Below, piece by piece: positions 13,212-53,934 of a DNA stretch of 64,000 bases; position 1 is the stretch's first letter; each line of letters begins with the position of its first letter. The translations under genes were made by a program, and so were the position numbers. The notes beneath the pieces were generated by a model. That model made no database searches. It had not been told where the DNA came from and saw only the letters and a program-made list of their open reading frames with translations. This stretch comes from a bacterium (GTDB taxonomy: Bacteria > Patescibacteriota > Dojkabacteria > B142 > OLB20): assembly GCA_021463645.1 (NCBI GenBank), contig JAJTYI010000006.1, positions 53,692 to 117,691 on the forward strand, read 5' to 3'.

Positions 13212-14162
13212 CTAGACAAGCCTTCCTCTTTTTTTTACTTCCTTAATAGGTGTTCTCAGCATTCTATATAAAAAAGAATTAGCTTTATATAGATTCTTAG
13301 AAGAATCAAGTCTTGCCGATTCCATTTTTGAGAAAGTTTTTCCTACTCGTCTATCATCTTGATTATTGCCCCATTCGTAAAATAAATGTTCAGGGGTAGG
13401 ATCACTCATATCAAATATGTTGTTTGTAAGTTTTTTTAACTGAGACTTTCGAGGTAGATGAAATTTTTTTTCATCAAAATTTGCCCTAAAACCATGCCAT
13501 CCGTATTCTTGAACTTCTTTTTGTGAGTACTTCGACTTTTTTGTATATTTATCAATTGCGTGTTGCTTACTCAAAAAAATATAATGTTTCAAAATAAATG
13601 GATTTGGATATATCTTCATATTCTCAAAAAATACCCTATGTCCACCAGATGTCTCAAATGAGATTAAGTTTTCAGTTTTCTTCCATAATTTAATCTGTGA
13701 AAATGGTTCAGATGAATGAAAATAATAATATTTCATTTCATCTTCGTAATTTTTACCGATATAACTCTTTCCATCTTCAGGCATGAAGTTAAACAAATGA
13801 AAATTTACAGCGTTATAACCTAGTGATTCAACTTTTACAAGTGCATCTTTTATGGTTTTGAAAGGCCTGTGTGGCAGCCTAATCTCGTCAGCATCACAAT
13901 GCATAAACCAATCTGAATCATAGGAATTTGCTATGTTCTCTTCAAACTTTAGAATTTCCTCAAGTTTGAAAACACCTCCAGTATCAATGTAATCTATTTT
14001 CACTATTCCTTTATTGAGATACTTTTTTGCTACTTCTAAGCTATCGTCTACAGACCCATTATCAATCAAGTAAATCTCAAATCCTTGCTTAATGAGGTTT
14101 TCTATACAGTACTTGAGATAATACTCTTCATTTTTTATTGTTAATAACGCTGTGAGTTTCAT
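13212..14162 (-). CDS. GT2 family glycosyltransferase
   Basis: MKLTALLTIKNEEYYLKYCIENL, IYLIDNGSVDDS and HCDADE motifs. Confidence 0.65.
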   Translation of the reverse strand: MKLTALLTIKNEEYYLKYCIENLIKQGFEIYLIDNGSVDDSLEVAKKYLNKGIVKIDYIDTGGVFKLEEILKFEENIANSYDSDWFMHCDADEIRLPHRPFKTIKDALVKVESLGYNAVNFHLFNFMPEDGKSYIGKNYEDEMKYYYFHSSEPFSQIKLWKKTENLISFETSGGHRVFFENMKIYPNPFILKHYIFLSKQHAIDKYTKKSKYSQKEVQEYGWHGFRANFDEKKFHLPRKSQLKKLTNNIFDMSDPTPEHLFYEWGNNQDDRRVGKTFSKMESARLDSSKNLYKANSFLYRMLRTPIKEVKKRGRLV

Positions 14163-14233
14163 GCTTTAAATACTGCTAAAAATACGACGTAATGTTCATA
14201 AAATGAATTATATCATTTGATTATATTGATGAA

Positions 14234-16969
14234 TTACATACCGGGAACTACATAGAACGAGTTGTCCAAAGAATTTACTTGAATCGTGTAAAACGCATTG
14301 GTAGAGTCTACTACGACAGGTCCTAAGTTACTAGGTTGTAAATCGTAATAAATTTGGCTTATTCTATTTCCCGGAGCTATTTGATACGGACCTTTGACCT
14401 CGCTTCCCACAGTTAAATCCACACTTATTGTTTGCGAAGTAGACGGGTTGCCTACCACAATCCATGATCGCCTACTAGAATTTACAATATATTCAGGATA
14501 ATAATATGACGTTGTAAAGTTTGCAGGTATTAATCCTACCATTTGATAATAGTTTCCATTTACTGAACTGACCTGTGAAGTATACACATTGTTATCTGAC
14601 GTTACTGACACAGGTCCCTTGTTTGATACATCTAAATCATAATATATTTTACTTATCCTCTCTCCAGGCAAAATTTCATATGGTCCCTTAGATACTCCAC
14701 CAATTTCAATATTAACATTTGCTGTCAATGTTGCCGATGGATTCCCCACAATAATCCATGATTGCCTACTAGGGTTAACTATGTACTCAGGATAAAAGTA
14801 ATTATTTGTTAATTCGCTAACTTTTATTCCCTGTATCTGGTTAAAACTTCCGTTTACGGAATTAATCTGAGAAGCAAAGATATTTATATTTGCACTAATT
14901 TTCACTGGGCCTAGATTCCCAAGTGTTAGGTCAGAAAAACTAAGGCTATTTCTAGCTCCTGGGATAAGAGTATATGGTCCTTTACTTTCGTCTCCAATTA
15001 CAATATTAACAATAGCATTTTGCACACTTGTAGCTGGATTACCGAATACCAACCAGGAACCCCTGAAGCTATTGACAATATATTCTGGGAAGTAGTATTC
15101 ATTTGATAAGTCAGTCAAATCCATACCGTGAACTTGATAATAAGAAGAACCCACCTTACTTACTTGAGTTGAGAATGCAGGACCACTGGCAATTACTTCT
15201 ACTGGACCTAAATTACCAGGTGACAAATTACTATAACTTATACTTTTACGTTCACCAGGTTTCAGCTGATATGGTCCAAATATTTCATCCTTTATTTTAT
15301 TCATATAGAAAAGATCGTCTGTATCTGAAGGGTTGGCAGTAATAAGCCAAGAGCCCCTTGAAGTGGAATTTACAATATACTCAGAAAAGAATGAATTCGT
15401 CAGTAAAGTTGACGAGTATAGAAAAGCTTTATGAAAATCTATAACACCTACACCTGTCTGGTCATCTCTACCTATAACATTTATATCATTTGTGGCAGTT
15501 CCGAGGGCGATTCTTAATTCATCGCTACTCATCCCGAAGTTATTCCCCAATATAATAGCTGCCGCTGCTGCAACTTGTGGAGAAGCAAACGAGGTTCCTA
15601 TTGCATACTGATTAGAAAATTGTTTGTATCGAGATACGTTTGTACTGTTATAACAGTCTGTCCTAGCTGTAAAACAAGTATAGGATTGTTGATAGGTTGC
15701 ATCACCAGCTCCTCCCCAATCTCCAACATAAGCGACCAAATCGAGTTCGGGCCCATAAGCTGAATAGGATGTTTTAGAACCATCGGTTTTCACAGCTCCG
15801 ACCGCAACGACATTCGGATATTTTGCGGGATAATATACAGATCCACCTTTGTTTCCCGAAGAGGCAATTACTAATACTCCTGCATTATGAGCATTATTTA
15901 TCGCTTGCTCGAGTAGTGCATCATAACTTGACCCTGCAAGACTCATGTTTATAATATCTGCACCATTATCAACTGCATAATTAATTGATTCTACTAACCT
16001 AGAACTTCCAAATGAAGGTGTCTTTGAATAATTTGCTTTGATGGTCATTATTTGAACATTTGCTGCGGGGGATACACTTCCGGTCCCATTTCCTGTAAGT
16101 GAAGCAATTAATCCGGTCACAAATGTTCCATGCCCACCATCATCATCTGGATGTCCTGTCTCACCGGATTCTTGTGTAGAACATCCCCAGGTGTTGCAGT
16201 AAAAATAATTCTCCATATTCACTCCATGGTAGTCATCAATAAATCCATTTCCGTCATCATCAATATCGTTATTTGGTGTTTCTCCTGAATTTGTCCATAG
16301 ATTAATACTGTCTCCTACAAACATATCTGGAGCAGGATCAAAGTCAAAAGGAGTTGATGCTACATCTTCCCAGACAGAAGTATAATCCTGAAAGGCTAGT
16401 CCAGTATCAATAACTGCAACTACTACGTCGCTTGAACCTCCGCAACCAACTCCACTATTAAAACAATCCTGTTCATACCAAAGTGATCGCAAGTTCGACT
16501 TTTCATAGTACCAATGATTACCAGTTGCTGGTAATGGTGTTAGATCGAAATCATCAGGAGTATCGAGTAAGCTATCCCTACTCCACACTTCGTTCGTATA
16601 CAAGTAGTCTGGTTGAACGTGTTTGATACTTTTATCATTAAGCAATTCAACAAGTTTCGATTCTAATTTCTCTAATCTTTTCTGATTCTTTGAGAAATCA
16701 TTATTTTTCTCCCGTAACAACTTCGATGAGACATAACCCTCTTCCTCTTGAATATCTTCGAGAACTATAATCTCAGGTTTGTCACTGTTCTCCCTTACAA
16801 CCACTAATCTAGTAAGATCAAATTCATACTCATCCTTTAATAGCTGTTGGACTTTCTCGTTATTTGCTTTTGCATTGACTGCGTCCAAACCAAAGTTATA
16901 GAAAGTAGAAGCAATTAATAGAGTTACAATTAATAAAAATGTTTTGGGAAAGACTTTTGTATAGTTCAA
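14234..16969 (-). CDS. Secreted subtilisin-like serine protease (S8) with a C-terminal four-repeat domain
   Basis: Triad motifs are VVVAVIDTGL (Asp), GGHGTFVTGLIAS (His) and AIGTSFASPQVAAAAAII (Ser). It has an N-terminal signal anchor ending VNAKA and a propeptide-like region ending VQPDYLY. Confidence 0.85.
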   Translation of the reverse strand: MNYTKVFPKTFLLIVTLLIASTFYNFGLDAVNAKANNEKVQQLLKDEYEFDLTRLVVVRENSDKPEIIVLEDIQEEEGYVSSKLLREKNNDFSKNQKRLEKLESKLVELLNDKSIKHVQPDYLYTNEVWSRDSLLDTPDDFDLTPLPATGNHWYYEKSNLRSLWYEQDCFNSGVGCGGSSDVVVAVIDTGLAFQDYTSVWEDVASTPFDFDPAPDMFVGDSINLWTNSGETPNNDIDDDGNGFIDDYHGVNMENYFYCNTWGCSTQESGETGHPDDDGGHGTFVTGLIASLTGNGTGSVSPAANVQIMTIKANYSKTPSFGSSRLVESINYAVDNGADIINMSLAGSSYDALLEQAINNAHNAGVLVIASSGNKGGSVYYPAKYPNVVAVGAVKTDGSKTSYSAYGPELDLVAYVGDWGGAGDATYQQSYTCFTARTDCYNSTNVSRYKQFSNQYAIGTSFASPQVAAAAAIILGNNFGMSSDELRIALGTATNDINVIGRDDQTGVGVIDFHKAFLYSSTLLTNSFFSEYIVNSTSRGSWLITANPSDTDDLFYMNKIKDEIFGPYQLKPGERKSISYSNLSPGNLGPVEVIASGPAFSTQVSKVGSSYYQVHGMDLTDLSNEYYFPEYIVNSFRGSWLVFGNPATSVQNAIVNIVIGDESKGPYTLIPGARNSLSFSDLTLGNLGPVKISANINIFASQINSVNGSFNQIQGIKVSELTNNYFYPEYIVNPSRQSWIIVGNPSATLTANVNIEIGGVSKGPYEILPGERISKIYYDLDVSNKGPVSVTSDNNVYTSQVSSVNGNYYQMVGLIPANFTTSYYYPEYIVNSSRRSWIVVGNPSTSQTISVDLTVGSEVKGPYQIAPGNRISQIYYDLQPSNLGPVVVDSTNAFYTIQVNSLDNSFYVVPGM
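14237..15400 (-). repeat. Four tandem ~95-aa protein repeats in the S8 protease C-terminus
   Basis: Each unit starts Y(F/Y)(F/Y)(S/P)EYIVN..R.SW(L/I)..(G/A)NP and contains KGPY...PG.R.S..(Y/F).(D/N)L...N.GPV and ...SQ(V/I).S(V)(N/G).S(F/Y)(Y/N)Q. The units are diverged at DNA level. Confidence 0.7.
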
Positions 16970-25765: not shown

Positions 25766-28057
25766 ATGTTGCGAACATCCCACCTTTTAGATAACCTTGT
25801 TATAGTCATGAATAAAATATCAAATAAAAACACCAGAGATTTCAAGAGATTCATCTTCGGAGTAATCTCAGTCATCTTGATGATATTTTTCGTTCTAATT
25901 TTCCATTTTTCTACTAAATATCAACCAATTGATGTAGACGCAGCTAGGAACACAATTACTGGGACATACTCTATTATTATTGAGGAAGATTTTAAGAGTT
26001 TTAAAAGTAAGGATATACCCGTGCTCGTCAAGGACGACAAATCAATAATACAACTGGGTAATCTAAATAAACTACCGAAAGGGACTAAACCCGGGGATAA
26101 AATAAAAATTACAGGTGTATATAATAAAAAAGCCGTATTAAATATTAGATCATCGACGCTTACAAGTGTTTCAAAATCGAGAACCAGTAATTTATCACAA
26201 ATAAATGTGCGAATCTTACCGGTAAACCTCAGAAATAATAACACCAATGCTTTCACCAAAGAACAAATGCAAAATGTCCTAAACGGAAATAATAATCCAA
26301 TAAGCGCAGATAGATTTATGCAGAAAGTTTCAAAAGGAAGATTCAAACTCGGCGAAGTCAAAGTCGAAGACTGGTACAAAATTGACACTAAAGATATTCC
26401 TACAAACGATGTCTGCACAGTCTACGATATCAATACCATCATCAATCACCTTGATGAACAATACAATGCAGACGTGTATAACAAAAACTATCAAAGTTTG
26501 ATTTTTATAATTGATGCGGAATGCTATACAGGTGGGCGTGCTGTGTCAAGATTTGAAACTGGACAAGGATACATTTATCTTTCAACCCAAGCTTTTAAAG
26601 AAGGTGTTGTAGTTCATGAAATGGGTCATAACTTAGATATTCATCATGCTAATAGTTATGACTGTGCTACTGAAGCATATGATAAACCATCTAACTGTGC
26701 GTCGAAAGAATATGGTAATCCATTTTCAGTGATGGGACTAGATGTTTACGATAATTTATTTAGAGAATTTAATGGAGCCGAAAGGATTAGAGCCGGTTGG
26801 CTAAATGCATCTGAAATCACGAAAGTTACTAAAAGTGGTAAGTACACAATCTACCCACTAAGTGAAAATACTACTCAACCCAAAGTTTTAGAAATTCTGA
26901 AAAACGATATTCAAGATGATGAAAGATATTATCTTGATTTCAGGACACCTAATGCACCTTTCGATACGATTGATAGCGATCTATATGATGGAGGAAACGT
27001 TACCGGTGTTGGAATTCAAACGATCTTTACACAAACAAATAATCCTGAGAGTGCTTTTAGATTTTACTTAAGGCATTCACAAATTATTGATAATACCCCA
27101 CAATCATTCACGGGTTATAACGAATACTACAAAGACTTTTTGGATGGCAGATTAACAAAAGTAGGACATGAATATTATGACAAGATAAATGGAATAAAAA
27201 TAAAAGTTGTATCTATTGATAATCAGAAGGTAGATCTCCAAATTGACTTTTCAACTAGCATTCCTCAAACAAGCAACCTTATCACGTTTCGTGCAAAATC
27301 TTCATCAGAAGATGTCAAAGCACATTTGTGGTTAAGAGATCCATCCACTGGCAAGTACAATATAGTTAAGGACTACAATAAAACAAACTCTAGCTTCTCT
27401 ACCTACTCGTTCACTGAGAACTCAGGAAGAGTGATTAAACCAGAAGATGTTAGAATATCATATACAGGATTTGAACCAACATACCAAGGTCAGCAATTTT
27501 TCTTGGATCTAATGTGGCTTGAAATCAACAATGTAAGATACTTAGCTACTGACCCCGACGTATATTCGACTGGTGCATGGAGCAAACCAAAAGCTAGGTG
27601 TGCCATTGGTTATCCCAACGTTTACACTAGCGAATACGAGACCCCTACAAGATTATCGTGCCAGGGAACTTATTTCCAATTCAAGAAAAGCGAAAATTTG
27701 CCAATCAAATTGAAAAACATGGCAGTTAGGGCGAACTGTGATCTCTCAGGAGATCCAGAAGTTATAATAACTTGGGATAGTGATAAAAACAGTTCAGTGT
27801 ATTTTGTTGACTATTGTGAGGGAACAACATGTTCACCAACAACATCCCTTGACGGTGTACCCGAAGATAGTGGCCAAGATGGTATAAGGCGATTCTATGC
27901 ACATATCGATGATCCATTTGGTCTTACTCCCCCACCCATAGCAGGGAAAACATACAAATACAGAGTCGAAGGTGCAAAACTTTCGAATGGGGAGTACTTG
28001 GTTGGTCCGTGGTCTGACACCTTAAGCGTCACTATCCCCCAAAACATTTGCAACTAA
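25766..28057 (+). CDS. Membrane-anchored secreted zinc metalloprotease (metzincin / gametolysin M11-like) with C-terminal CBM-like and FN3-like modules
   Basis: VVVHEMGHNLDIHHAN is an HExxHxxxxxH zinc site. An N-terminal TM anchor is present. The more likely start is the ATG at 25808 (MNKISNK...). The C-terminal module is homologous to that of the 49235..51313 protein. Confidence 0.6.
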   Translation: MLRTSHLLDNLVIVMNKISNKNTRDFKRFIFGVISVILMIFFVLIFHFSTKYQPIDVDAARNTITGTYSIIIEEDFKSFKSKDIPVLVKDDKSIIQLGNLNKLPKGTKPGDKIKITGVYNKKAVLNIRSSTLTSVSKSRTSNLSQINVRILPVNLRNNNTNAFTKEQMQNVLNGNNNPISADRFMQKVSKGRFKLGEVKVEDWYKIDTKDIPTNDVCTVYDINTIINHLDEQYNADVYNKNYQSLIFIIDAECYTGGRAVSRFETGQGYIYLSTQAFKEGVVVHEMGHNLDIHHANSYDCATEAYDKPSNCASKEYGNPFSVMGLDVYDNLFREFNGAERIRAGWLNASEITKVTKSGKYTIYPLSENTTQPKVLEILKNDIQDDERYYLDFRTPNAPFDTIDSDLYDGGNVTGVGIQTIFTQTNNPESAFRFYLRHSQIIDNTPQSFTGYNEYYKDFLDGRLTKVGHEYYDKINGIKIKVVSIDNQKVDLQIDFSTSIPQTSNLITFRAKSSSEDVKAHLWLRDPSTGKYNIVKDYNKTNSSFSTYSFTENSGRVIKPEDVRISYTGFEPTYQGQQFFLDLMWLEINNVRYLATDPDVYSTGAWSKPKARCAIGYPNVYTSEYETPTRLSCQGTYFQFKKSENLPIKLKNMAVRANCDLSGDPEVIITWDSDKNSSVYFVDYCEGTTCSPTTSLDGVPEDSGQDGIRRFYAHIDDPFGLTPPPIAGKTYKYRVEGAKLSNGEYLVGPWSDTLSVTIPQNICN

Positions 28058-28424: not shown

Positions 28425-29174
28425 ATGTTTGTCGACAACCTAGATGATTATGAAGAGCCGCATCAACCCCTAAATCCAATCGAGATAGGAGAATTTGGGG
28501 TAGTTTCTGATAGATTATTTACTTTTATTACACAGAAGCCTAGAGGTAGACCTGAAAAAATTAGCTATTCATTAAATGAGGATGGGGAAAGACAAGCCTG
28601 TTATGTTCTTTCTCATCTAGATATTGAGGATTTATTCATATTCCCCAAATTAATAATTACTCAAAAAGCAATACTTGGTAATGGCAAATCTCTATTTATG
28701 TCCAATGCTGAAATCCTTGTAATGAGCCCTGATGATTATCAGTATGGAACACTTAACAATCAATCTGACGGAAGCTCTAATTCTCTATCTACGTTTTGGA
28801 TTGAAGACCAAGTTGGTTTTCACCCCGTATCAATGTCGACCGAATTCTCACTTGAGGGACAGAATTACCGACTCAATTTTAATAACCAAGGAAACCTTAT
28901 ACAGATTATATCTGATTCTGTAGCAATGCCTAATTACAGAAATCGATCTAGATTTTCAAAACCACGCACAATGATTTATACCGATCAGAATGATTTACGA
29001 CTCATAGCTAGACACCTTTCAGCCTTATTAAGAGAAAGTGGAATACCTTCAAATTATGAGCACTTTTCATTGAAACACGTTGACATAGCATTTACGAATC
29101 TTCTCGCATCCATTGGGGCCGGATATAAGTTCACTTCCGATGGAGATATAATTCCCATATTAAGATATCGTTAG
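28425..29174 (+). CDS. Hypothetical protein
   Basis: A 249-aa ORF with no overlap with other genes. No motif was recognised. Confidence 0.4.
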   Translation: MFVDNLDDYEEPHQPLNPIEIGEFGVVSDRLFTFITQKPRGRPEKISYSLNEDGERQACYVLSHLDIEDLFIFPKLIITQKAILGNGKSLFMSNAEILVMSPDDYQYGTLNNQSDGSSNSLSTFWIEDQVGFHPVSMSTEFSLEGQNYRLNFNNQGNLIQIISDSVAMPNYRNRSRFSKPRTMIYTDQNDLRLIARHLSALLRESGIPSNYEHFSLKHVDIAFTNLLASIGAGYKFTSDGDIIPILRYR

Positions 29175-29246: not shown

Positions 29247-32200
29247 ATGTTCAAACCCGTCAATCCAAAGCAAAATTTCCCTGAACTTGAGGGAGAAATT
29301 ACAAAATTTTGGAAAGAAAACAAAATTTTTGAAAAATCTGTTGAAAATAGAAGTGCAAAGAACAGTTATATTTTCTATGACGGGCCTCCATTTATCACAG
29401 GTACTCCCCATTACGGTTCTCTACTTCCAAGTATAGCAAAAGACGTAATCCCTAGATATCAAACCATGCGAGGTAAAAGAGTCGAAAGAGTTTGGGGTTG
29501 GGATTGTCATGGATTACCAATTGAAAATAAAGTTGAGAAAAAACTAGGTATTAAAAACAGACGTGAAATTGAAAAATATGGAATCGACAGGTTTATTGAC
29601 GAATGTTACAACTACACCCGCGAAACTTCTGCAGAATGGAAATGGTACATCGATAAAATTGGTCGATGGGTAGATATGGACAATGCCTACAGGACTATGG
29701 ATCAAGACTACATGGAAACAGTTATGTGGGTGTTCAAACAACTCCATGAAAAGAATCTAATTTACAAAGGAATGCGCACCTCACTTTATTGTACTCGCTG
29801 TGGAACACCTGTATCGAACTTTGAAATCGCTATGGATAACTCCTATGCAGACATGGAAGATCCTGCTGTCACCATAAAATTCCCAGTGACAACACCCGGT
29901 GAATTCTCAAACAGTTCAATATTGGCATGGACCACTACTCCATGGACACTTCCTTCAAACAAAGCATTGGTTATTGATCCCGAGGAAACGTACATAAAAG
30001 CAAAAGTGCAAAAACTCACTATTGAACTTGAACAAAGCTGGCAAGTGAAGGAATTACCAGAAAATTTAAAAAAATTAAAAAGGTCCGAAATCACACAGGC
30101 ATACCTAGAAGACTATATCGACGAAAATGGGATAAAACCAAGAGACGCTCGTATTAGAAGGATTGACAGTAAATTTGAATTCACAACGAAATATTATGCT
30201 GGGAAATCTACTGAAACTGGACAATTAATTGAAAAAACCAAAGAAATCACAAAAGATGAATACATCGAATTGATTAAAACAACCAAAGCGAAAGTTGTTA
30301 AGACAAGGTATTACTACCCGCTTGAAGATGGATTAACTGCAGAAATTGATGTATATAGGAATCAACACGAAGGTGTAAATTTCGTAGAAGTTGAATTCAG
30401 TTCTCTTAAGAAATTACAGAACTTCAAAAAACCCGAATGGTTTGGAAAAGAAGTAACTGATTGTGATGCCTGCTTCCCTAGATACATGGCGGATAAGACC
30501 AGTGAAAGAATCTTGTCAGAGATTGAGGCATATTCTCAGGTAGAACATAATTACGAAGAAAACGTTCAAACTGAAAATGTTATCCTTGCAAAGAAACGTG
30601 CAGAATATGCATTAGAAAATATTGATTATGAAATTGTAGAAGAATTTGAAGGGAAAAAACTATTGGGTTTGAAATACCGACCTCCTTTTGATTACTATAA
30701 TACCGAAAAAGGCGAACATCAAGTTTATGGTTTCCCTGGAATGGTTCACATGGAAGAAGGAACTGGAATCGTGCACAGTGCCCCTGGATTTGGAGATATT
30801 GATACAGAAATGGGTCAAGAATATGGATTGTCCATAGCTATGACAATTAATGACGAAGGTAAATATTTACCACAAGTGAAAGAATTTGTAGGTATGTATG
30901 TCAAAGATGCGGATCAACCAATTATTGAAAACCTCAAATCGAGAGACATTTTATTTAAAGTTGAGAAAATTGTTCATAGATACCCCTACTGCTGGCGTTG
31001 CGAAACCCCACTAATTCACAAAGCACAACCATCTTGGTTCATTGATATTGAAAAAATTCGCAAAGATTTATTGAGAAATAATGAGGATATCAACTGGGTA
31101 CCAAAACATTTAAAACATGGTCGCTTTAAAAAAGGTATCGAAGTTGCACCTGATTGGGGAATTTCTAGAACAAGATACTGGGCAACACCAATGCCCGTGT
31201 GGCAAAGAGAACAAGACGGACAAATCGTAGAAACAAAAGTCATCGGTAGTAGAGACGAACTTCGTGAACATGCAAACGAACCAATCACAAAAATCACATT
31301 CGTAAGACATGGTAATAAATCTCAAGATGACAGTCAAGACCCGGGAATGACCGACTTGGGACATGAACAGGCAAAGGAGCTGGCAAAAAAACTTTCGAAG
31401 GAGAAATTTGATGTAATAATCTCATCCCCAAAAAAAAGAACGCTTCAAACAGCACAATATATCAAAGAAGCTTTGGGTCAAGACTTCATAGAAGACAATT
31501 TATTTACTTCACTCACTGATGGCGACGGTAGAGAGTTTTACAGACAAATCAAAGAACAACACAATGTCGATTATCTTCACGAACTTCCAGAAAGCATCCT
31601 GAGAGAGAAAATATTCCCTGTACTCACTCCATTAAAAGAAAATTTTGAGAAATTGTTGAAAAAATACGAAGGTAAAAACATATTAATCATTTCGCATTCA
31701 GGAAAAATCAAATTCTTGGAACACATTATCGAAGGTTCAAACCTTAGAACAGTTTTGACTTCAAAAATTAAAGAAGCCGGAACATACACAGCATATTTCC
31801 ACGGAACGGATTTATTGGATTTACACAGACCGAAAATTGACCAAATTACCTTAAAGGGCAAAACCGGAGAATTGACAAGGGTGAAAGAGGTCCTAGACGT
31901 ATGGATGGACAGTGCCTCTATGCCTTATGCTTCAAAGCACTACCCTTTCGAAAATAAACAAATACTTGAAGAAAATTATCCAGCTGATTTTATTGTTGAA
32001 TATATTGCCCAAACAAGGGCTTGGTTCTATGTGATGCATGTGATTTCAACAGCATTACTGAATCAACCATCATTTAAAAATGTCATTACTACAGGAGTTA
32101 TATTCGGTACAGATGGAAGAAAAATGAGCAAAAGTTACGGAAATTACCCCGATCCTCGAGACGTACTTGAAAATTATGGTGCAGAAACATTAAGAATGTA

Positions 32201-33257
32201 CCTAATGGGTTCTAAAATTATGCTTGGCGAGGATATGAATTTTGACGAAGAAGCACTGAAAGAACAATACAAAACCTTCCTACTACCTCTTTGGAACAGT
32301 TATTCATTCTTTGTCACATACGCTAACATTCATAAGTGGGGACCCACTGGGAAATTTGATTCAAACGATCAACTCGATAAATGGATAGTCGCAAAACTTG
32401 ATGAAACTAAGAGTCACTTCATAAAAGCAATGGACTCATATAATATCCCCTCAGCAGTTAAACTACTTCCGGAGTTTATCGATGTATTATCAAGATGGTA
32501 TATAAGAAGATCACGAAGTAGGTTTGCACAAGGTTCAGAAGATGCTTTGAGCACTTTACACTACATCTTGGTTGAATTTACAAAATTATCTGCTCCTGTA
32601 GTTCCATTCGTTTCAGAAGAGATATTCCAAAATCTCCAAAATGACAATCAATTTGAATCTGTACACTTATCTAATCTTGATAAACCAAAGAAATTAACCT
32701 TAGAAAGTAACGATCCGTTATTGCGAAAGATGGAATTAGTTAGAGAGATTTCCACCCTAGGCCAATCATTACGTGTGCAAAACAATCTCAAAGTAAGACA
32801 GCCATTACAGAGTGTGGAGATTTATATAAAAGATAAAAATCTTGCAACTGAGGAAGATATGGGATGGATGAATGAAATCGTAAAAGACGAGCTCAATGTG
32901 AAGCAAGTAAAGTTTGTAAACAAAAAGCCTAAAGATGAACTTCTTGTCAGCTCGGGTTTAAATGACACCCTATTCGTCGGATTAGACTCTAAACTAACAC
33001 CCGAATTGGAAGCTGAGGGAATCCTTCGTGAGCTTACAAGACAGATTCAGAGCCAGAGGAAAAAATTAGGATTGAATATGGGTGATAAAATTGAACTAAC
33101 AATTCAAACTGATGACAAGAAACTTGAAGGAATAATCAAAAAGAATGAAAAAGAATTTGCTGAATCAGTAAATGCTACAAACGTCCATTTCACTACAGCG
33201 AATTTGGAACACAAATTATCTATCAACGGTTCAGAACTTACCCTATCGCTTAGTTAG
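29247..33257 (+). CDS. ileS: Isoleucyl-tRNA synthetase (eukaryote/archaeal-like type 2) with two inserted domains
   Basis: PPFITGTPHYGS (HIGH region), TTPWTLPSN and GTGIVHSAPGFG (CP1 editing), WGISRTRYWATPMPVW, DLHRPKID, KMSKS and a C-terminal anticodon-binding region. At 1336 aa it is roughly 300 aa longer than usual. Confidence 0.9.
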   Translation: MFKPVNPKQNFPELEGEITKFWKENKIFEKSVENRSAKNSYIFYDGPPFITGTPHYGSLLPSIAKDVIPRYQTMRGKRVERVWGWDCHGLPIENKVEKKLGIKNRREIEKYGIDRFIDECYNYTRETSAEWKWYIDKIGRWVDMDNAYRTMDQDYMETVMWVFKQLHEKNLIYKGMRTSLYCTRCGTPVSNFEIAMDNSYADMEDPAVTIKFPVTTPGEFSNSSILAWTTTPWTLPSNKALVIDPEETYIKAKVQKLTIELEQSWQVKELPENLKKLKRSEITQAYLEDYIDENGIKPRDARIRRIDSKFEFTTKYYAGKSTETGQLIEKTKEITKDEYIELIKTTKAKVVKTRYYYPLEDGLTAEIDVYRNQHEGVNFVEVEFSSLKKLQNFKKPEWFGKEVTDCDACFPRYMADKTSERILSEIEAYSQVEHNYEENVQTENVILAKKRAEYALENIDYEIVEEFEGKKLLGLKYRPPFDYYNTEKGEHQVYGFPGMVHMEEGTGIVHSAPGFGDIDTEMGQEYGLSIAMTINDEGKYLPQVKEFVGMYVKDADQPIIENLKSRDILFKVEKIVHRYPYCWRCETPLIHKAQPSWFIDIEKIRKDLLRNNEDINWVPKHLKHGRFKKGIEVAPDWGISRTRYWATPMPVWQREQDGQIVETKVIGSRDELREHANEPITKITFVRHGNKSQDDSQDPGMTDLGHEQAKELAKKLSKEKFDVIISSPKKRTLQTAQYIKEALGQDFIEDNLFTSLTDGDGREFYRQIKEQHNVDYLHELPESILREKIFPVLTPLKENFEKLLKKYEGKNILIISHSGKIKFLEHIIEGSNLRTVLTSKIKEAGTYTAYFHGTDLLDLHRPKIDQITLKGKTGELTRVKEVLDVWMDSASMPYASKHYPFENKQILEENYPADFIVEYIAQTRAWFYVMHVISTALLNQPSFKNVITTGVIFGTDGRKMSKSYGNYPDPRDVLENYGAETLRMYLMGSKIMLGEDMNFDEEALKEQYKTFLLPLWNSYSFFVTYANIHKWGPTGKFDSNDQLDKWIVAKLDETKSHFIKAMDSYNIPSAVKLLPEFIDVLSRWYIRRSRSRFAQGSEDALSTLHYILVEFTKLSAPVVPFVSEEIFQNLQNDNQFESVHLSNLDKPKKLTLESNDPLLRKMELVREISTLGQSLRVQNNLKVRQPLQSVEIYIKDKNLATEEDMGWMNEIVKDELNVKQVKFVNKKPKDELLVSSGLNDTLFVGLDSKLTPELEAEGILRELTRQIQSQRKKLGLNMGDKIELTIQTDDKKLEGIIKKNEKEFAESVNATNVHFTTANLEHKLSINGSELTLSLS
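30015..30572 (+). other. CYTH (triphosphate tunnel)-like domain inserted in the IleRS editing domain
   Basis: It lies between KAKVQK and ENVILAKKRAEY. Matching segments are IELEQSW (ExExK-like), ITQAYLEDY, ARIRRIDSKFEFTTKY, VKTRYYYPLEDGLTAEIDVYRNQHEGVNFVEVEFSS and PEWFGKEVTDCDACFPRYMA. Confidence 0.6.
31284..31808 (+). other. Histidine phosphatase (PGAM/SixA-like, branch 1) domain inserted in IleRS
   Basis: It lies between ...SRDELREHANEP and DLHRPKID. Matching segments are ITFVRHGNKS (RHG), IISSPKKRTLQTAQ and ILIISHSGKIKFL. Confidence 0.7.
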
Positions 33258-33324: not shown

Positions 33325-33960
33325 ATGTTTAATTTAGAAAAAAATCCGTTCCTCCACGATTTAAAGGTTAAAACCAAAGGTAGTGTAATAATCGACATAT
33401 TACAAACAGTAGTTTTAGCTCTTGCATTTAGTCTTTTCATTTATCTAGTATTTCTCATCCCGAGCCAAGTTGAAGGTCCATCTATGGAACCAAATTTCTA
33501 CAACAGAGAACTTCTTTTCGCTGATAGAACTGTTCAGTGGATTGGATCCACATCTTTGGGCGCAGGAGTCTATGATTACCACAAAGGAGATGTCGTAATC
33601 TTTGATTTTAATGGAATCAACCTAATCAAAAGAGTCATAGCAACAGAAGGAGACAAAATCAGACTATCTGGAGGAAGAGTATATGTTAACGAAAAATTAT
33701 TAAATGAGCCATACTTGCCGAGTGGCAGAATGAGCAATGTGCCCGATCCTTCCAGAGCCACAATCTTAGAAGACCAGGTAGAAATTGTCCCAGAAGACTC
33801 ATATTTCCTAATGGGCGATAATCGAGAAGTGAGCAAAGACTCTCGTTATAGTGATGTTGGTTTTGTAGAGAGGCGCCAACTCAAAGGAAGAGTATTTTTA
33901 CGATACTGGCCTGTAGACAAATTAGGCACAATTCGTCCGGGTCAACCATCTCAAGATTAA
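33325..33960 (+). CDS. lepB: Signal peptidase I
   Basis: An N-terminal TM helix, VEGPSMEPNF (catalytic Ser), LIKRVIATEGD (catalytic Lys box) and GDNREVSKDSRY. Confidence 0.85.
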   Translation: MFNLEKNPFLHDLKVKTKGSVIIDILQTVVLALAFSLFIYLVFLIPSQVEGPSMEPNFYNRELLFADRTVQWIGSTSLGAGVYDYHKGDVVIFDFNGINLIKRVIATEGDKIRLSGGRVYVNEKLLNEPYLPSGRMSNVPDPSRATILEDQVEIVPEDSYFLMGDNREVSKDSRYSDVGFVERRQLKGRVFLRYWPVDKLGTIRPGQPSQD

Positions 33961-33963: not shown

Positions 33964-34569
33964 TTGGAAAATTTCCTTAACCACAAAAAAACAAAAAATA
34001 TTCTTGATTTCCTAGAAACACTCACAATCGCTTTGGCATTTTGTGCATTCATCTATCTGACTATCGCTTTTCCAAATAAAGTAGAAGGACAATCAATGGA
34101 GCCAACTTTTCATCATAGCGACTTGGTTATAACGAACAAAACTGTTCAGTATCTTGGCAATACAGATTTCGGACAAAGCAGGAATTATGATTACCAAAGA
34201 GGAGATGTTGTAATAGTAAAACAAGGCAATACAGATTTGATCAAAAGAGTTGTCGCACTCGAAGGGGAGGAAGTTGAGATCAAAAATAACAATGTGTATA
34301 TAAATGGTATGGAATTGGAAGAAGAATATCTACCAACCACCGTCAGAACTAAACTCCCCTCTTACGAACTGAGCCTTTTTCGGAATGAAGCCTCCCTTAC
34401 TGTTCCTGAAAATTCATATTTTGTAATGGGAGACAATCGCGAACATAGTAAAGACTCGCGTTTTAAGGAAATCGGTTTCATTTCGAGATCAAATATTAAA
34501 GGTCGTGTAATTTTCCGTTACTGGCCTCTCGCAGACTTAGGAATTATACATAGAGGAGAATACAAATAA
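33964..34569 (+). CDS. lepB: Signal peptidase I (second tandem paralog)
   Basis: VEGQSMEPTF, LIKRVVALEGE and GDNREHSKDSRF. A TTG start lies 3 nt after the first lepB stop. Confidence 0.85.
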   Translation: MENFLNHKKTKNILDFLETLTIALAFCAFIYLTIAFPNKVEGQSMEPTFHHSDLVITNKTVQYLGNTDFGQSRNYDYQRGDVVIVKQGNTDLIKRVVALEGEEVEIKNNNVYINGMELEEEYLPTTVRTKLPSYELSLFRNEASLTVPENSYFVMGDNREHSKDSRFKEIGFISRSNIKGRVIFRYWPLADLGIIHRGEYK

Positions 34570-39485: not shown

Positions 39486-40487
39486 ATGTCAATTAAAGAT
39501 AGAAAGTTACAACATATCAAAATTGTCTTAGAGAAGGATACGCAGCCGTATCCTTCTTCTTTTGACAAATATGTTCTACCCCACAAAGCACTTCCAGAAA
39601 TAGACTTAAAAGAAATCGATACCACAGTCAGATTCTTCAACAAAGAAATTTCGTTTCCATTTATGATTGCATCGATGACGGGTGGTGAAGAATTTGGAAA
39701 AACTATTAACACCAATCTTGCCATTGCTGCTGAAAAAAACAAAATTCCGCTCGCACTCGGATCGATGAGAGTCATATTGAAGAAACCAGAATCACTGGAC
39801 AGCTTTAATGTGCGCCACCTTTGCCCTTCTGTTCCGTTGTTCGCAAACATGGGTTTGGTACAGTTGAATTATGGATATGGAGCAAAAGAAATTAACAAGT
39901 TGATCGATATAATTGAAGCTGACGGGATATTTTTACACATAAATCATCTCCAAGAAGCGGTTCAACCAGAAGGTGACACAAACTTTAAAGGGTTGATTGA
40001 TAAACTTGCAAAGGTTCTACCTAAGATCAAGAAACCCATTCTAATCAAAGAAGTTGGCAATGGAATTGACAAAGAAACAGCAAAGAAGCTTACAGAAATT
40101 GGTATCGAATGGATTGATGTTGCTGGTGGTGGAGGGACAAGTTGGCCATGGGTAGAAGGTTATCGTCGAGATGATGACCTTGGTGACATATTCAAAACTG
40201 AGTCAATCCCTACAGATAAATGCTTAATCGATTGTCGAGAAATTGAAAATCTGAATTTAATAGCTTGTGGAGGAATACGAAATGGCAAACATATAGCACT
40301 AAGCTTGATGTTGGGAGCGGACATGGCTTCTAGCGCAAAACCTTTCCTTGAGCCAGCACTTAAAAGTTCTGATGCCTGTTCAAAAATAATTGAAAAATAC
40401 AAAAGAGAATTTCGAATCAGTATGTTTGCGGTGGGAGCCAAAAATATTAAGGAACTCAAAATGATAAGTCCAACACTTATTGCTTAG
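39486..40487 (+). CDS. fni: Type 2 isopentenyl-diphosphate delta-isomerase (FMN-dependent)
   Basis: RKLQHIKI, FMIASMTGG, LQEAVQPEGD and VAGGGGTSW motifs on a TIM-barrel layout. Confidence 0.85.
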   Translation: MSIKDRKLQHIKIVLEKDTQPYPSSFDKYVLPHKALPEIDLKEIDTTVRFFNKEISFPFMIASMTGGEEFGKTINTNLAIAAEKNKIPLALGSMRVILKKPESLDSFNVRHLCPSVPLFANMGLVQLNYGYGAKEINKLIDIIEADGIFLHINHLQEAVQPEGDTNFKGLIDKLAKVLPKIKKPILIKEVGNGIDKETAKKLTEIGIEWIDVAGGGGTSWPWVEGYRRDDDLGDIFKTESIPTDKCLIDCREIENLNLIACGGIRNGKHIALSLMLGADMASSAKPFLEPALKSSDACSKIIEKYKREFRISMFAVGAKNIKELKMISPTLIA

Positions 40488-41280
40488 GTTTTTCGTAGAT
40501 AACTCGACCTTCTTTTAGAGCAGTCTCCAAGAAACTCTCCCCTTCATCATCTACCATCAAACTAAATTCTTCTTGAGTATAAACAAGAGGCTCTATAATC
40601 GGAGCTCCTTCTTTTGTGGATTTTCTAGCTTTGAAAATTCTCTGTATAAAGCTATCTTCGGTATTAGCGATTATTAAAATATCCATCGTGGAAAGTCTGC
40701 TGACTTGTTCGTCTCTAGCAAACCTACCAAACAGAATTATTTTCTCTGGATCAAATGCAACTATTAATCTTTCTTTGATTTCTTCTATTCGATTTTCTAT
40801 TTCTTCCTTCGTAAACATTTCGTCATAGGTCAATAACATTTCTTGAGGCTCCATCGGATGCGACAAGATGACAGATATTTTTTGTAAGAATTCTTGTGCC
40901 TGTCTGTATGCTCTCTCTGCTTCAGGCTTCGTGATAATCTCGTGAGGTGTTTTTGTACGTCCTGGAAGTAAAAATGGATAACGAGAGACAAATGTAAACG
41001 ATTCTAAAAATCTGAATTGGAATTTGGTCTGTTTGAATTCCGGGCAAATTCTGTTACAAATTCCCATCAATGTCTGAAGTTTGTGAATTCTAGGTGGGTT
41101 TGCACCAGCGTATACGATAACTGCTTTCAAAGATTTCTCTACTGCCTGGACGGCTTGGAAAGTCGACCATTCATAAAAACCCTCATCTAATGAGAGTTTG
41201 GATGCTTGTAAATCAAATTCACCTTGTCTAAACCAGACGATGTGTCTCGCTTTTTTTGGTTCGTGCTTGTGTTCAGTCAA
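40477..41280 (-). CDS. HEPN domain fused to a minimal nucleotidyltransferase (MNT-like) domain
   Basis: The HEPN half has FQAVQAVEKSLKAVIVYAGANPPRIHKLQTL and FVSRYP. The NTase half has KIILFGRFARDEQVSRLSTMDILII, with the GS and DxD positions altered to GR and TMD. Its 3' end overlaps the fni 3' end by 11 nt (convergent). Confidence 0.7.
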   Translation of the reverse strand: MTEHKHEPKKARHIVWFRQGEFDLQASKLSLDEGFYEWSTFQAVQAVEKSLKAVIVYAGANPPRIHKLQTLMGICNRICPEFKQTKFQFRFLESFTFVSRYPFLLPGRTKTPHEIITKPEAERAYRQAQEFLQKISVILSHPMEPQEMLLTYDEMFTKEEIENRIEEIKERLIVAFDPEKIILFGRFARDEQVSRLSTMDILIIANTEDSFIQRIFKARKSTKEGAPIIEPLVYTQEEFSLMVDDEGESFLETALKEGRVIYEKPKQ

Positions 41281-41870
41281 GAGATTAATTCTTCATAAGA
41301 GCCAATAAGTAATACGATTCTTTGTGACAGAATATTAAGAACGAAAGGATCCCTTCGTTTTTTCTTCAGGAAAAATTCTCGTTCTGTCATGACCGTATAG
41401 AATATTTCACGTTCTAACTTCTGTTCAGCTTGCTCTACTAATTCTGTAAGTTTAGGTAATTCGATGGTACCAATAACCACTAAGTCAATCTTCTGTGATG
41501 ATGTATGACTTTGTTTGAGATAATCTTCCGTAAGAAGAGCAAACTTAACTTCTCCTAAAGTTTTATTTGCTCGTATGAGTTTCCCTCCTAGTCCAAATGC
41601 CTTGTGCATCATACTCAGAAGTTCGTAATAATAGACACTGTCTTTGTTCTGTTGAAAGAATTTCTTTGAACCATCTTCTTCGGAGACCACAATTCCAACT
41701 TCTTCGAGTCTGGTAAGTTCTCTTCTCACTGCGTTGATTTCTTCGTCAATTTCGCGAACAATTCCTCTTAGATGTAACTTCACATCCGGCTGAAGCAGGA
41801 AGAATTTAAGAACTTTTATTCTTACCTTTGATACTAAAAGTGCCTCTAATGTTGACGATGCTCTACCCAT
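41277..41870 (-). CDS. Winged-helix (ArsR-like) DNA-binding protein with a C-terminal nucleotidyltransferase-like domain
   Basis: VRIKVLKFFLLQPDVKLHLRGIVREIDEEINAVRRELTRLEEVGIV is a wHTH. The C-terminal KIDLVVIGTIELPKL...REIFYTVMTEREF resembles degenerate NTase-fold regulators. It overlaps the HEPN gene by 4 nt and lies 12 nt after recA. Confidence 0.5.
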   Translation of the reverse strand: MGRASSTLEALLVSKVRIKVLKFFLLQPDVKLHLRGIVREIDEEINAVRRELTRLEEVGIVVSEEDGSKKFFQQNKDSVYYYELLSMMHKAFGLGGKLIRANKTLGEVKFALLTEDYLKQSHTSSQKIDLVVIGTIELPKLTELVEQAEQKLEREIFYTVMTEREFFLKKKRRDPFVLNILSQRIVLLIGSYEELIS

Positions 41871-49234: not shown

Positions 49235-51313
49235 CTATTTAGCTTCGTATTGGAAATATCCATTGCAGTGCAGCAATTCTGTGGAATAATATCCTCCTAC
49301 ACATGCCCCAGCCGAGCTGTTCCAGGTTCCTGTCGAAAGTGTGGTTGGATCTTCTGTTTGATAAACAGTTGTACCCAATGTCAATTTATCTATATAGACA
49401 TCTACCGAACCATCTCCGTTAGCTAATTTCACTTTTATTTCTGATATTCCGACAGGAACTGTGTGGGTATATCTATAATCTGCATAGGTCGTCGAATTTA
49501 CCGTAAAAGTCTGAACAGTGGGTTGAACTGTTGTAGGATTACCAATTTTTAATTCTACCTTAGGCCATGCACCTGCTACTGATAAACCATTTCTTGCTTT
49601 TGCACGTATCACAATACTTGTTGATTTATTTAATGAATTTGAAGTGGTAGGTGTTACATTATTCGATAATTCGACTGCACCAATATCCGGAACATCTACT
49701 CGATTGTTTCTGAAATAGTCTATCTGTCTTGCTTCAGTTGGAATAGCAACTCCAATTGTACTACCTGCAGTCGTACCTGTACCTACTGCCTTGCTTCCGT
49801 TTACTAAGCGATAGTTATTAATATTCAAAGCTGTAACTAATTCGTCGACATTGATTTCATCTGGACCGATAACAGGATACTTAAGGTTCAACATTACAAC
49901 GGCATTCGATAAGCCTGGATCGTTTGTATATACATCCCCACCTCCCTTAACGGTGTTCGGGACATTTTGTAATGGCCACAGATTGTTCCTAAAGGTCACT
50001 TTATCATTGGAAGATAATTTGACATTAATTTTAGAAGTAGGATTTTTTCTAGTATCAATTATATTATTTTCAAAAAGCGCAGTTAGGGCAGGATCACCTG
50101 AACCTGTGACCGCAGAATGCGTAATCCTAAGAATTGTGGTCAAGTCTTTTCCGGCAACCAATGTATTGTTACCGAAATAAATATTATTGTTATTGGAGAT
50201 GTACTTGCTATTGGCTCCTGCAATAAAGAACATTGTATTGATTATCATATTGTTGTAAATCAATATGTTTGTATTAGGCACTTTTCCCATCTTCAAATGT
50301 CCTTTTTCATTTCTTAAACCAAATCTCCATTCTCCATTTGTCACATCATCCTCCGTACCTCCCGCAGCTATTTTTTTCTCTTCTGGAGCATAGAAAAGAT
50401 TATTCCGTACAGTTGAACCTTCTATCATTCCAGCATAAAAACTATTCTTATTTCCGATCAAAACATTATTTTCGAATATGAAGTTTTTACTACCGGGCTG
50501 TGGAGATACTTCTCCTTCTCCCCAAGCAATGATATTTCCCCTTACCAGGGTGTTATTACCTCCAAAAGACGTACTAACATTTACACAATATTTCTTAACA
50601 TTCGGTACACCACAGGCCCCTTCGACTCTCACATTGTATTCGTCACCAAAAGATGCTCGGAGGATAGTATTATCCAAGAACTTATTATTATTCATTTGAT
50701 TGGGGTACACTCCATCGATTATTTCAGGCCTAGCAAATATTGAAGAGTTAAAGGTCCAATCTATTTTGTTATTTTTAATTTCATTATTATCTGATTTTCC
50801 CGAATTTCCTGAAGTGGAAAAAGATATACCCCTACCACACGAATATCTTATATAAAGTCCATCAATTGTTACGTTGCTGAGATTTGTGAAAGTGACTAAT
50901 GGAGCGTATTCGCCAATACTTTTACATTTATTATTCCATTGTGTAACTATATTATTCCAGTCCCCGCTTAATAACGATGGTGGAAAGCCACCATCAATGA
51001 TTGCCTTATGTTTAGTTTCTGACTTCCATGTAGTATTTGCAACATAAATTGTTAAGACTTCCCTGTATATCCCGTTTTTTAATATTACGGTATCACCTGG
51101 TAAAATTTTTGAATTAGCTTTTGCGAAGGTTTTCCAAGGGTTTACACTTGTACCAGCATTGTTGTCATTTCCTGTGGGAGATACATAATATATGCTTGCT
51201 GCACTATCATCCTCCGGCGCCCATTCTCTATATACAAGTAGGCTGGTCACGAGTAATAAAATTAAACTTACTGCAACTAGACCAACTGATATTATTTCTT
51301 TTCTCATTTTCAA
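49235..51313 (-). CDS. Membrane-anchored secreted right-handed parallel beta-helix protein (putative polysaccharide lyase/hydrolase) with a C-terminal CBM-like module
   Basis: A signal anchor is followed by YREWAPEDDSAA. YYVSPTGNDNNAGTSVNPWKTFAKANSKILPGDTVILKNGIY is a typical beta-helix entry motif. Repeated asparagine-ladder rungs are present (ENNVLIGNKN, RNNLFYAPE, YNNMIINT). There is no dockerin-like tail. Confidence 0.7.
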   Translation of the reverse strand: MKMRKEIISVGLVAVSLILLLVTSLLVYREWAPEDDSAASIYYVSPTGNDNNAGTSVNPWKTFAKANSKILPGDTVILKNGIYREVLTIYVANTTWKSETKHKAIIDGGFPPSLLSGDWNNIVTQWNNKCKSIGEYAPLVTFTNLSNVTIDGLYIRYSCGRGISFSTSGNSGKSDNNEIKNNKIDWTFNSSIFARPEIIDGVYPNQMNNNKFLDNTILRASFGDEYNVRVEGACGVPNVKKYCVNVSTSFGGNNTLVRGNIIAWGEGEVSPQPGSKNFIFENNVLIGNKNSFYAGMIEGSTVRNNLFYAPEEKKIAAGGTEDDVTNGEWRFGLRNEKGHLKMGKVPNTNILIYNNMIINTMFFIAGANSKYISNNNNIYFGNNTLVAGKDLTTILRITHSAVTGSGDPALTALFENNIIDTRKNPTSKINVKLSSNDKVTFRNNLWPLQNVPNTVKGGGDVYTNDPGLSNAVVMLNLKYPVIGPDEINVDELVTALNINNYRLVNGSKAVGTGTTAGSTIGVAIPTEARQIDYFRNNRVDVPDIGAVELSNNVTPTTSNSLNKSTSIVIRAKARNGLSVAGAWPKVELKIGNPTTVQPTVQTFTVNSTTYADYRYTHTVPVGISEIKVKLANGDGSVDVYIDKLTLGTTVYQTEDPTTLSTGTWNSSAGACVGGYYSTELLHCNGYFQYEAK

Positions 51314-51348
51314 TTATTTAAATTCTCAATCTTTTAATTTCTTCATTT

Positions 51349-53913: not shown

Positions 53914-53934
53914 AATATTTTAATTTATTAATCA

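Follow-up and report, generated by a model that had tools for sequence, protein, structure and literature searches.

The 64,000-nucleotide stretch of a Dojkabacteria genome analysed here (contig JAJTYI010000006.1; hereafter the window) carries an ileS gene for a type-2 isoleucyl-tRNA synthetase (IleRS) of unusual build. It is practically certain that two domains of hydrolase families are nested within this enzyme: a CYTH/triphosphate tunnel metalloenzyme (TTM) domain inside the CP1 editing domain (insert 1) and a branch-1 histidine phosphatase domain further downstream (insert 2). Comparison with related enzymes revealed a Dojkabacteria-wide modular system, in which three IleRS loop tips hold interchangeable hydrolase cassettes. 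Dojkabacteria (WS6) are a lineage of the candidate phyla radiation (CPR). Bacterial aminoacyl-tRNA synthetases (aaRS) are usually seen as architecturally conservative, and appended domains are mostly eukaryotic and terminal rather than nested. Here, complete and apparently catalytically competent enzymes are embedded in an essential synthetase, within its editing and catalytic domains, and in sister lineages domains of other hydrolase families take their place at precisely these loop tips.

The ileS open reading frame (ORF) starts with ATG and contains no internal stop codon. The window is AT-rich (GC ~0.31-0.41), and the composition runs unbroken through the ORF (GC 0.35-0.38). Its product scored 800.9 bits against the ileS equivalog model TIGR00392 (cut-off 621.4), with the match divided into three stretches that are separated by the inserts; MupA and MupB were the next-best NCBIfam models. 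Pfam assigned tRNA-synt_1 (1.4e-121), Anticodon_1 (aa 1044-1189) and DUF5915 (aa 1229-1335). The nearest solved structures were of type 2 (Priestia megaterium IleRS2, 8C8V, 674 bits; T. thermophilus, 1ILE, 657 bits), whereas type-1 enzymes scored far lower (8C9E, 284 bits; 1FFY, 277 bits), and a fold search gave the same ranking. With the eukaryote-like, mupirocin-resistant type-2 IleRS represented by 8C8U/8C8V and 1ILE, the product shares the core, CP1, the anticodon-binding domain and the C-terminal domain; it differs by ~365 extra residues at 8C8V-equivalent positions 247-254 and ~479 and by a HIGH signature that reads HYGS. In an AlphaFold model of aa 1-1200 (pLDDT 87.4, pTM 0.76), the scaffold superposed on type-2 IleRS structures with target-normalised TM scores of 0.69-0.86, and the KMSKS loop (aa 954-964) was the sole stretch with pLDDT below 50.

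An earlier reading of the DNA letters without database searches (the sequence-only reading) had called the ORF a type-2 IleRS on the strength of PPFITGTPHYGS, TTPWTLPSN, GTGIVHSAPGFG, WGISRTRYWATPMPVW, DLHRPKID and KMSKS. All of these strings are present in the translation, and the profile and structure scores bear the assignment out. The Thr-rich peptide WTTTPWTLPSN lies at aa 228-238, the editing motif GTGIVHSAPGFG at aa 505-516 and KMSKS at aa 959-963 (nt 32121-32135). Across 121 sequences (the query and 120 homologues), K-M-S-K was invariant (121/121), with Ser in 98 and Thr in 12 at the fifth position. WTTTPWT was 100% conserved, and the editing motifs WTTTPWT and GTGxVHxAP together reached 87-100% apart from the variable x position (65%). 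The HIGH signature (H55-Y-G-S58; aa 55-58, nt 29409-29420) keeps the first His and the Gly, while the last His is replaced by Ser. Class I synthetases seldom lack this second His. Among the 121 related IleRS, 56 have Ser, 41 have His and 20 have Thr at the fourth position, and Ser or Thr occurs in 24/48 insert-less and 52/73 insert-bearing enzymes. Judged from these alignments, variation at this position is a lineage trait without correlation to the inserts.

The gene order formyltransferase, LGT, ileS, signal peptidase(s), ParA, ParB, amidase, RNase Y is common to ileS of the window and of its close orthologues, to P0123, an insert-less Dojkabacteria enzyme of 1003 aa, and to P0104, which has the histidine phosphatase domain only. 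These insert-bearing and insert-less ileS genes are therefore orthologues at one locus. Given that TIGR00392 scored above its cut-off, K-M-S-K, WTTTPWT and GTGxVH are conserved, the core evolves with a dN/dS of 0.04 and synteny is maintained, the window gene appears to be an intact, orthologous and working housekeeping IleRS of type 2, for which aminoacylation itself is predicted.

The boundaries of the inserts were obtained from an alignment with 120 homologues, of which 46 were ordinary CPR IleRS of 930-990 aa. The surplus residues fell into two blocks, aa 257-442 and aa 679/685-857, in close agreement with the two discrete inserts proposed by the sequence-only reading (aa 257-442 and 680-854). 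An identical protein was found in public data as part of a 90% cluster of 15 members (NCBI, JGI, ENA and Logan assemblies). About 50 further clusters with 41-91% identity share the two-insert layout in frame, one of them in a complete genome (CP129475.1). In the whole-protein AlphaFold model, both inserts were confidently folded and continuous with strands of the host. Comparison with two close orthologues (Nei-Gojobori) gave dN/dS values of 0.03 for the CYTH insert and 0.06-0.11 for the histidine phosphatase insert, next to 0.04 for the core; amino acid identity was 0.79-0.96 in the CYTH insert and 0.76-0.96 in the core. At greater divergence, the CYTH insert was at least as conserved as the core, and the histidine phosphatase insert evolved about twice as fast. 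Both inserts are thus under strong purifying selection.

The excess length of ~350-365 aa and the metagenome origin could also raise the idea of an artefact, that is, an assembly chimera, or of self-removing elements such as inteins that would be missing from the mature enzyme. Nothing else was found in favour of this explanation, which we regard as extremely improbable. The same protein occurs in several independent assemblies, and the diverged clusters, including the complete genome, share the in-frame layout with conserved junctions and inserts under purifying selection. Scans with Pfam and NCBIfam detected no Hint, intein or homing-endonuclease family in the protein, and none of the Cys/Ser/Thr and His-Asn signatures of inteins is present at the junctions (K|L...T|E and E|P...L|D). 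In addition, the modelled continuity of the inserts with host strands speaks against their removal. Assembly chimera and intein were rejected on these grounds.

Table 1 Features of the ileS gene and its product in the window
Feature	Residues (aa)	Position in window (nt)	Strand	Basis
ileS, complete type-2 isoleucyl-tRNA synthetase ORF	1336 in total	29247..33257 (stop codon included)	+	ORF call, TIGR00392, Pfam
N-terminal half of Rossmann fold and start of CP1 editing domain	1-256	29247..30014	+	
Insert 1, complete NeuTTM-like CYTH/TTM domain	257-442	30015..30572	+	boundaries, profile, fold, residues
Rest of CP1, CP/Zn-knuckle region (YPYCWRCETP), WGISRTRYWATPMPVW	443-678	30573..31280	+	aligns to 8C8V residues 254-479
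Insert 2, branch-1 histidine phosphatase domain	679-857	31281..31817	+	PF00300, motifs, fold in context
Second Rossmann half, anticodon-binding domain, type-2 C-terminal domain (DUF5915)	858-1336	31818..33257	+	

Identity of the two nested domains

Insert 1 is placed at the tip of the CP1 beta-hairpin, between strands 248-257 and 440-448 of the model. The sequence-only reading had likened it to CYTH domains and had suggested Pfam PF01928 as a check. This check came out blank: insert 1 alone gave no match to PF01928 at E values up to 1, nor to any other Pfam or NCBIfam model. The assignment therefore called for a homologue profile and a search by fold. The homologues recovered with insert 1 were free-standing proteins of 150-190 aa, mostly from metagenome-assembled genomes (MAGs) of Patescibacteria, with at most 48% identity over the whole length; 28 of 56 match Pfam CYTH. 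A family profile of these relatives matched NeuTTM, the specific inorganic triphosphatase NE1496 of Nitrosomonas europaea (2FBL/3TYP), with an E value of 1e-42. Consistent with this, a Foldseek search with the AlphaFold model of insert 1 (pLDDT 93.2, pTM 0.88) returned NeuTTM at the top, followed by SaTTM, AtTTM3 and ygiF, all with probability 1.0. The CYTH/TTM assignment therefore holds, with NeuTTM as the best fold match.

All 13 tunnel residues of insert 1 are identical to those of NeuTTM (E260, E262, Y286, R302, R304, K315, E329, K352, R354, E366, D368, E381 and E383), and the full set is kept in 42 of the 49 embedded CYTH copies. In TTM enzymes, the acidic, metal-binding and basic, phosphate-binding residues of the tunnel serve a two-metal mechanism (PMC4641920, PMC8233210). 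Y286 and K315 match the positions of Tyr28 and Lys52, the proposed catalytic dyad of NeuTTM (PMC3440374). Besides being nested instead of stand-alone, insert 1, a predicted hydrolase, differs from NeuTTM in several respects. Its ExExK hallmark reads E260-L-E262-Q-S264, with both Glu kept and the Lys replaced by Ser264. At this Lys position, the commonest residues over the 49 embedded copies are Ala (26), Gly (8), Ser (4), Cys (3), Val (3) and Lys (3), and the 12 closest free-standing relatives all have Ala or Gly (12/12). Two further features of insert 1, namely a loop insertion of ~14 residues (aa 290-296 and 316-322) and the motif Y.Q.xH.[FY] of its C-terminal helix, are shared only with a small Patescibacteria subfamily. 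One clade of five embedded copies has lost 7-8 of the 13 tunnel residues, and the domain is kept.

Residues that discriminate TTM subgroups have been described, namely HFxxxxExExK for class IV adenylyl cyclase (CyaB) and the Trp of WxRxR for thiamine triphosphatase (PMC8233210). Neither is present in insert 1: the positions of the HF motif are taken by V254 and Q255, and the WxRxR region reads D300-A-R302-I-R304, with no aromatic residue. By its residues, insert 1 would therefore be a triphosphatase-type TTM.

The closest free-standing relatives (P0001-P0013, ~180 aa) are 39-48% identical to insert 1. Encoded by separate genes, they share with it both the ExEx[A/G/S] variant and the C-terminal helix. 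Since insert 1 aligns with these proteins end to end, including the helix, a whole gene-sized domain was captured, and the free-standing Patescibacteria CYTH proteins probably resemble its donor. The choice of query mattered for this comparison: a search with insert 1 alone gave free-standing proteins only, which by itself would wrongly suggest that the nested architecture is unique, whereas the whole-protein query exposed at least 45 IleRS with 50-96% identical inserts.

Insert 2 sits just before DLHRPKID, in a loop that has 3-5 residues in insert-less orthologues. Its earlier assignment to the branch-1 histidine phosphatases is upheld by PF00300 (His_Phos_1), which scored 76.1 bits on the insert alone and 70.7 bits in context (gathering score 21.7). 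NCBIfam models for PspA, cobC and dPGM also match, and the nearest solved relatives are the phosphoserine phosphatase PspA (4IJ5, 9e-10) and PhoE (1H2E), with which insert 2 shares the RHG motif, the second Arg and the distal His. The insert strings named by the sequence-only reading (IELEQSW and ARIRRIDSKFEFTTKY in insert 1; FVRHGNKS, SSPKKRTLQTA and IISHSG in insert 2) all occur in the translation. Its statement that the catalytic set of insert 2 is apparently intact stands in part. The Arg-His-Arg-His set is present: R687 and H688 belong to the RHG motif (aa 687-689), the second Arg to SSPKKRT and the distal His to IISHSG. However, where PhoE and PspA have the canonical general-acid Glu ('rIiEidhG'), the HMMER alignment puts a Ser of the query, in a loop with pLDDT ~76. 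Two residues past this Ser, many relatives have Glu or Asp, and the query reads Thr-Asp. Unlike PspA and PhoE, insert 2 is nested in IleRS, and many of its orthologous copies are degenerate: the Arg-His-Arg-His set is kept in 35 of 61 embedded copies, while the other 26 are degenerate or truncated, lacking either the set or the whole N-terminal half, with the C-terminal half well conserved. Free-standing relatives of insert 2 are distant (at most 35% identity; ~34% for the closest).

Interchangeable cassettes in related synthetases

We mapped the insertion sites over the 121 sequences and determined their contents by clustering and Pfam. There are three sites, which correspond to query positions 212-224 (site 0), 256-442 (site 1) and 678-857 (site 2). 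About 70 related IleRS clusters carry inserts at these loop tips, and the observed combinations comprise none, site 1 only, site 2 only, sites 1 and 2, sites 0 and 1, and all three. Site 1 holds either CYTH (n=49) or NUDIX (n=16) domains, and site 2 either domains of the His_Phos family (n=61) or Ser_hydrolase (PF06821, n=4); Ser_hydrolase (n=2), NUDIX (n=2) and a segment of 130 aa without family assignment (n=1) were found at site 0. The alternative domains occupy exactly equal positions, CYTH and NUDIX at one hairpin tip and His_Phos and Ser_hydrolase in one loop. In insert-less enzymes, these tips measure 0-6 residues at site 1 and 3-5 residues at site 2. The NUDIX box is intact in 14 of the 16 site-1 copies, and GxSxG is kept in all four site-2 Ser_hydrolase inserts (4/4).

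On a rough neighbour-joining tree of the IleRS core, the insert states form a mosaic, which points to losses, swaps and repeated inactivation. In the neighbourhoods examined for insert-less or single-insert Dojkabacteria, the missing domain was not encoded next to ileS. The sequence-only reading had known of no aaRS with such an architecture. This no longer applies, as the layout is widespread in Dojkabacteria and already present in public databases under generic names. The two inserts themselves were confirmed, but they are not a one-off; they represent one state of a larger combinatorial system that also includes NUDIX and Ser_hydrolase domains.

Public annotation names these proteins only 'class I tRNA ligase family protein' or 'isoleucyl-tRNA synthetase', and precomputed Pfam matches mark His_Phos_1, NUDIX and Ser_hydrolase on them, never CYTH. 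This constitutes an annotation problem, in that pipelines downgrade these IleRS to a generic name and miss the CYTH domain entirely. The only curated model for an IleRS with an extra enzymatic domain that surfaced was NCBIfam NF040702 (ileS_w_GNAT). It provides a precedent for such fusions, but the query is not a member (303.7 bits against a cut-off of 1999); GNAT is another family, and the query has two nested domains. Searches of open-access full text for IleRS of Dojkabacteria or Patescibacteria, and for CYTH, NUDIX or histidine phosphatase domains in aaRS, brought up no description of the architecture. The enzyme families are known, and their nested, combinatorial arrangement is apparently undescribed.

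Two further frames with expanded ileS were noted in JGI metagenomes. A stop-to-stop frame of 1393 aa (L129, 2045-6223) has several expansions, including one of ~100 aa at the equivalent of site 0, and a stop-to-stop frame of 1385 aa (L083, 3034-7188) has the IleRS core starting from aa 343.

Possible functions of the cassettes

We infer catalytic activity, substrate identity and coupling to IleRS chemistry from the sequences and models described above. According to the reading that we favour, the IleRS core would still activate Ile and charge and edit tRNA-Ile. The CYTH cassette would bind a triphosphate-containing ligand with two divalent metals and hydrolyse it, acting, as its residues suggest, as a triphosphatase and neither as a cyclase nor as a thiamine triphosphatase. 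The His_Phos cassette would remove a phosphomonoester via a phospho-His688 intermediate. Both cassettes may thus be tethered 'house-cleaning' hydrolases for nucleotide or inorganic polyphosphates, and plausible substrates from adenylate chemistry include inorganic triphosphate (PPPi), Ap4A/Ap3A and adenosine tetraphosphate. Ap4A has one of its main sources in aaRS and is degraded by NUDIX enzymes (PMC10148737), and NeuTTM-type enzymes have been proposed as metabolite-proofreading PPPases (PMC3440374). On these grounds, a link between the cassettes and adenylate side-products is plausible. Our confidence in the mechanism as a whole, functional coupling to IleRS included, is tentative and falls somewhat short of an even chance.

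A specific link of the cassettes to IleRS is suggested by several observations. In a profile search of 1.84 billion representative proteins, IleRS was the only large host in which the CYTH subfamily was nested among the top 150 hits; the remaining hits were free-standing proteins or fusions of the type CYTH-PRK-CYTH. In a MAG labelled Candidatus Gracilibacteria (L036; JANJWP010000005.1, 9962-14239), a CYTH gene (9962-10495) ends 12 bp before ileS (10508-14239). In the 1243-aa product of this ileS, aa 699-887 form a canonical His_Phos_1 domain (Pfam, 121 bits). It is nested at a fourth site, which lies between the catalytic domain and the anticodon-binding domain and differs from all those used in Dojkabacteria. 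L036 thus appears to be an independent arrangement of CYTH, His_Phos and IleRS. Elsewhere, another close CYTH gene lies directly upstream of an ArgRS gene (L007). Finally, the genes that neighbour the closest free-standing CYTH genes belong to the families that are nested in IleRS: relatives of NUDIX, His_Phos or Ser_hydrolase lie 0.15-3.8 kb away in 5 of 6 loci, and one of the CYTH clusters (L008) also has a HIT gene. Such neighbours were found at 3 of 60 distant CYTH loci (Fisher p = 3.6e-5) and at none of 46 ordinary ileS control loci. These control loci had been obtained in a metagenome scan for relatives of the L036-type insert, which returned ordinary ileS loci only, and were reused as a negative control.

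Proteins of ~560-690 aa that combine, in this order, a CYTH domain, a PRK/uridine-kinase P-loop domain and a second CYTH domain were also noted (L033, 9962-11635; also L046, L052 and L054). They come from MAGs labelled Saccharibacteria, Parcubacteria or Gammaproteobacteria and recall plant TTM1/TTM2, but have an extra N-terminal NeuTTM-like CYTH domain.

Several points weigh against tethered hydrolases that act on adenylate by-products. The query, most of the embedded copies and the free-standing subfamily closest to them have another residue in place of the Lys of ExExK, so that substrate or rate may differ from NeuTTM. In insert 2, the general-acid Glu appears as Ser across the embedded family, and the query also seems to have no acidic residue at the position two further on. 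Catalysis is probably dispensable in some lineages, given that 26 of 61 His_Phos and 5 of 49 CYTH copies are retained although they have lost catalytic residues. A purely phosphoanhydride theme would leave the serine alpha/beta-hydrolase, one of the alternative cassettes, unexplained. Furthermore, the L036 architecture rests on one MAG, since no close relative was recovered, and the neighbourhood statistics rest on six loci, with hidden Markov models biased towards Patescibacteria. The absence of the missing domains from the surroundings of ileS in insert-less Dojkabacteria is a further caveat to a specific link with IleRS.

Some of these points would fit inserts that are folded but non-catalytic, for example a sensor of triphosphate, polyphosphate or nucleotides that tunes IleRS, or an additional surface for binding tRNA or a partner. 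The conserved C-terminal half of degenerate His_Phos copies, the clade that keeps its CYTH domain despite the decayed tunnel and the absence of both the ExExK Lys and the canonical general-acid Glu from the query are in line with such a role, and TTM folds without catalysis exist, e.g., Med18/Med20 (PMC4641920), which were also among the Foldseek hits of insert 1. However, the metal- and phosphate-binding tunnel residues and the Tyr/Lys dyad are identical to those of NeuTTM, an enzyme with a kcat of thousands per second (PMC8233210), in the query and in most embedded copies, and the NUDIX boxes and the GxSxG of the site-2 Ser_hydrolase inserts are largely or fully intact. Binding would need many of the same residues, but their full retention across 40-50% divergence is more typical of catalysis, and we consider a purely non-catalytic role unlikely. 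The inserts could instead be active hydrolases with ordinary cellular jobs unrelated to IleRS chemistry, carried by loop tips that merely tolerate insertions; in a streamlined genome, fusion to an essential, constitutive gene would secure expression of the hydrolase. This would account for the unrelated folds at the same sites (CYTH, NUDIX, His_Phos, Ser_hydrolase and one without assignment) and for their combinatorial presence and absence, including insert-less orthologues, so that IleRS function does not depend on any one cassette. Small, clustered free-standing genes of these families also exist elsewhere in Patescibacteria, and the genes adjoining ileS in the window give no functional hint. 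On the other hand, a mere carrier role does not readily explain why the CYTH subfamily was nested in IleRS only among the top 150 hits, why an independent lineage (L036) reunites CYTH, His_Phos and IleRS in another arrangement, or why constraint on the CYTH insert equals or exceeds that on the core. We judge it rather unlikely, if a little less so than a purely non-catalytic role.

Taking the favoured reading of tethered house-cleaning hydrolases further, hot-swappable cassettes on Dojkabacteria IleRS might destroy adenylate by-products in cis, as a built-in metabolite proofreading that would have evolved at least twice in CPR (in Dojkabacteria and L036). The targets could be Ap4A/Ap3A, adenosine tetraphosphate and PPPi, and possibly misactivated adenylates or esters. 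In this full form, the proposal is speculative and probably does not hold. If the cassettes do act on synthetase by-products, this would be a new kind of metabolite proofreading physically coupled to translation, and it would open a way into the poorly understood biology of PPPi and Ap4A. Otherwise, the enzymes are still a clear natural example of domain grafting into permissive loops and of genome streamlining in ultra-small bacteria. They also map insertion-tolerant sites of IleRS, which could serve protein engineering.

Gene neighbourhood and further observations

The neighbours of ileS in the window encode glycosyltransferases, subtilases, signal peptidases, ParAB, RNase Y, RecA, PNPase and MurJ. 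Neither a tRNA nor an Rfam element such as a T-box was detected in the window. Directly downstream of ileS, two paralogues of signal peptidase I (Peptidase_S26) are arranged in tandem (33325-33960 and 33964-34569). This pair is conserved in close relatives (L003-L005 and L131), and an insert-less relative (L130) has one copy. Upstream of ileS, a protein of 763 aa (25766-28057) has a metallopeptidase-like HEMGH motif with a weak match to Reprolysin_5, and a protein of 249 aa encoded just before ileS (28425-29174) gave no family match. The closest relative (L001) shares both genes, and L003 shares the one for the 249-aa protein; neither is conserved in more distant relatives.

Four large tandem ORFs of 668-854 aa on the reverse strand (49235-60452) weakly matched beta-helix, Pel9A-like or CBM60 families. 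Beside them is the gene of an S8 subtilase (58125-60452, reverse strand), which has a fervidolysin-type prodomain, and a second S8 subtilase is encoded at 14234-16969 (reverse strand). Together with the subtilases, this region looks like a cluster of secreted or cell-surface proteins. Between the gene of an FMN-dependent dehydrogenase and recA, a predicted HEPN-domain protein of 267 aa overlaps a partner of 197 aa by 4 bp (40477-41280 and 41277-41870, reverse strand; by synteny with L001), and the pair resembles a toxin-antitoxin system.

A further synthetase was noted on another Dojkabacteria contig (JAFGDO010000032.1; L132, 11874-14444), where an arginyl-tRNA synthetase of 856 aa carries an N-terminal B3_4 domain (PF03483), the editing-type domain of the PheRS beta-subunit. 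This ArgRS is another unusual aaRS architecture in the same lineage.

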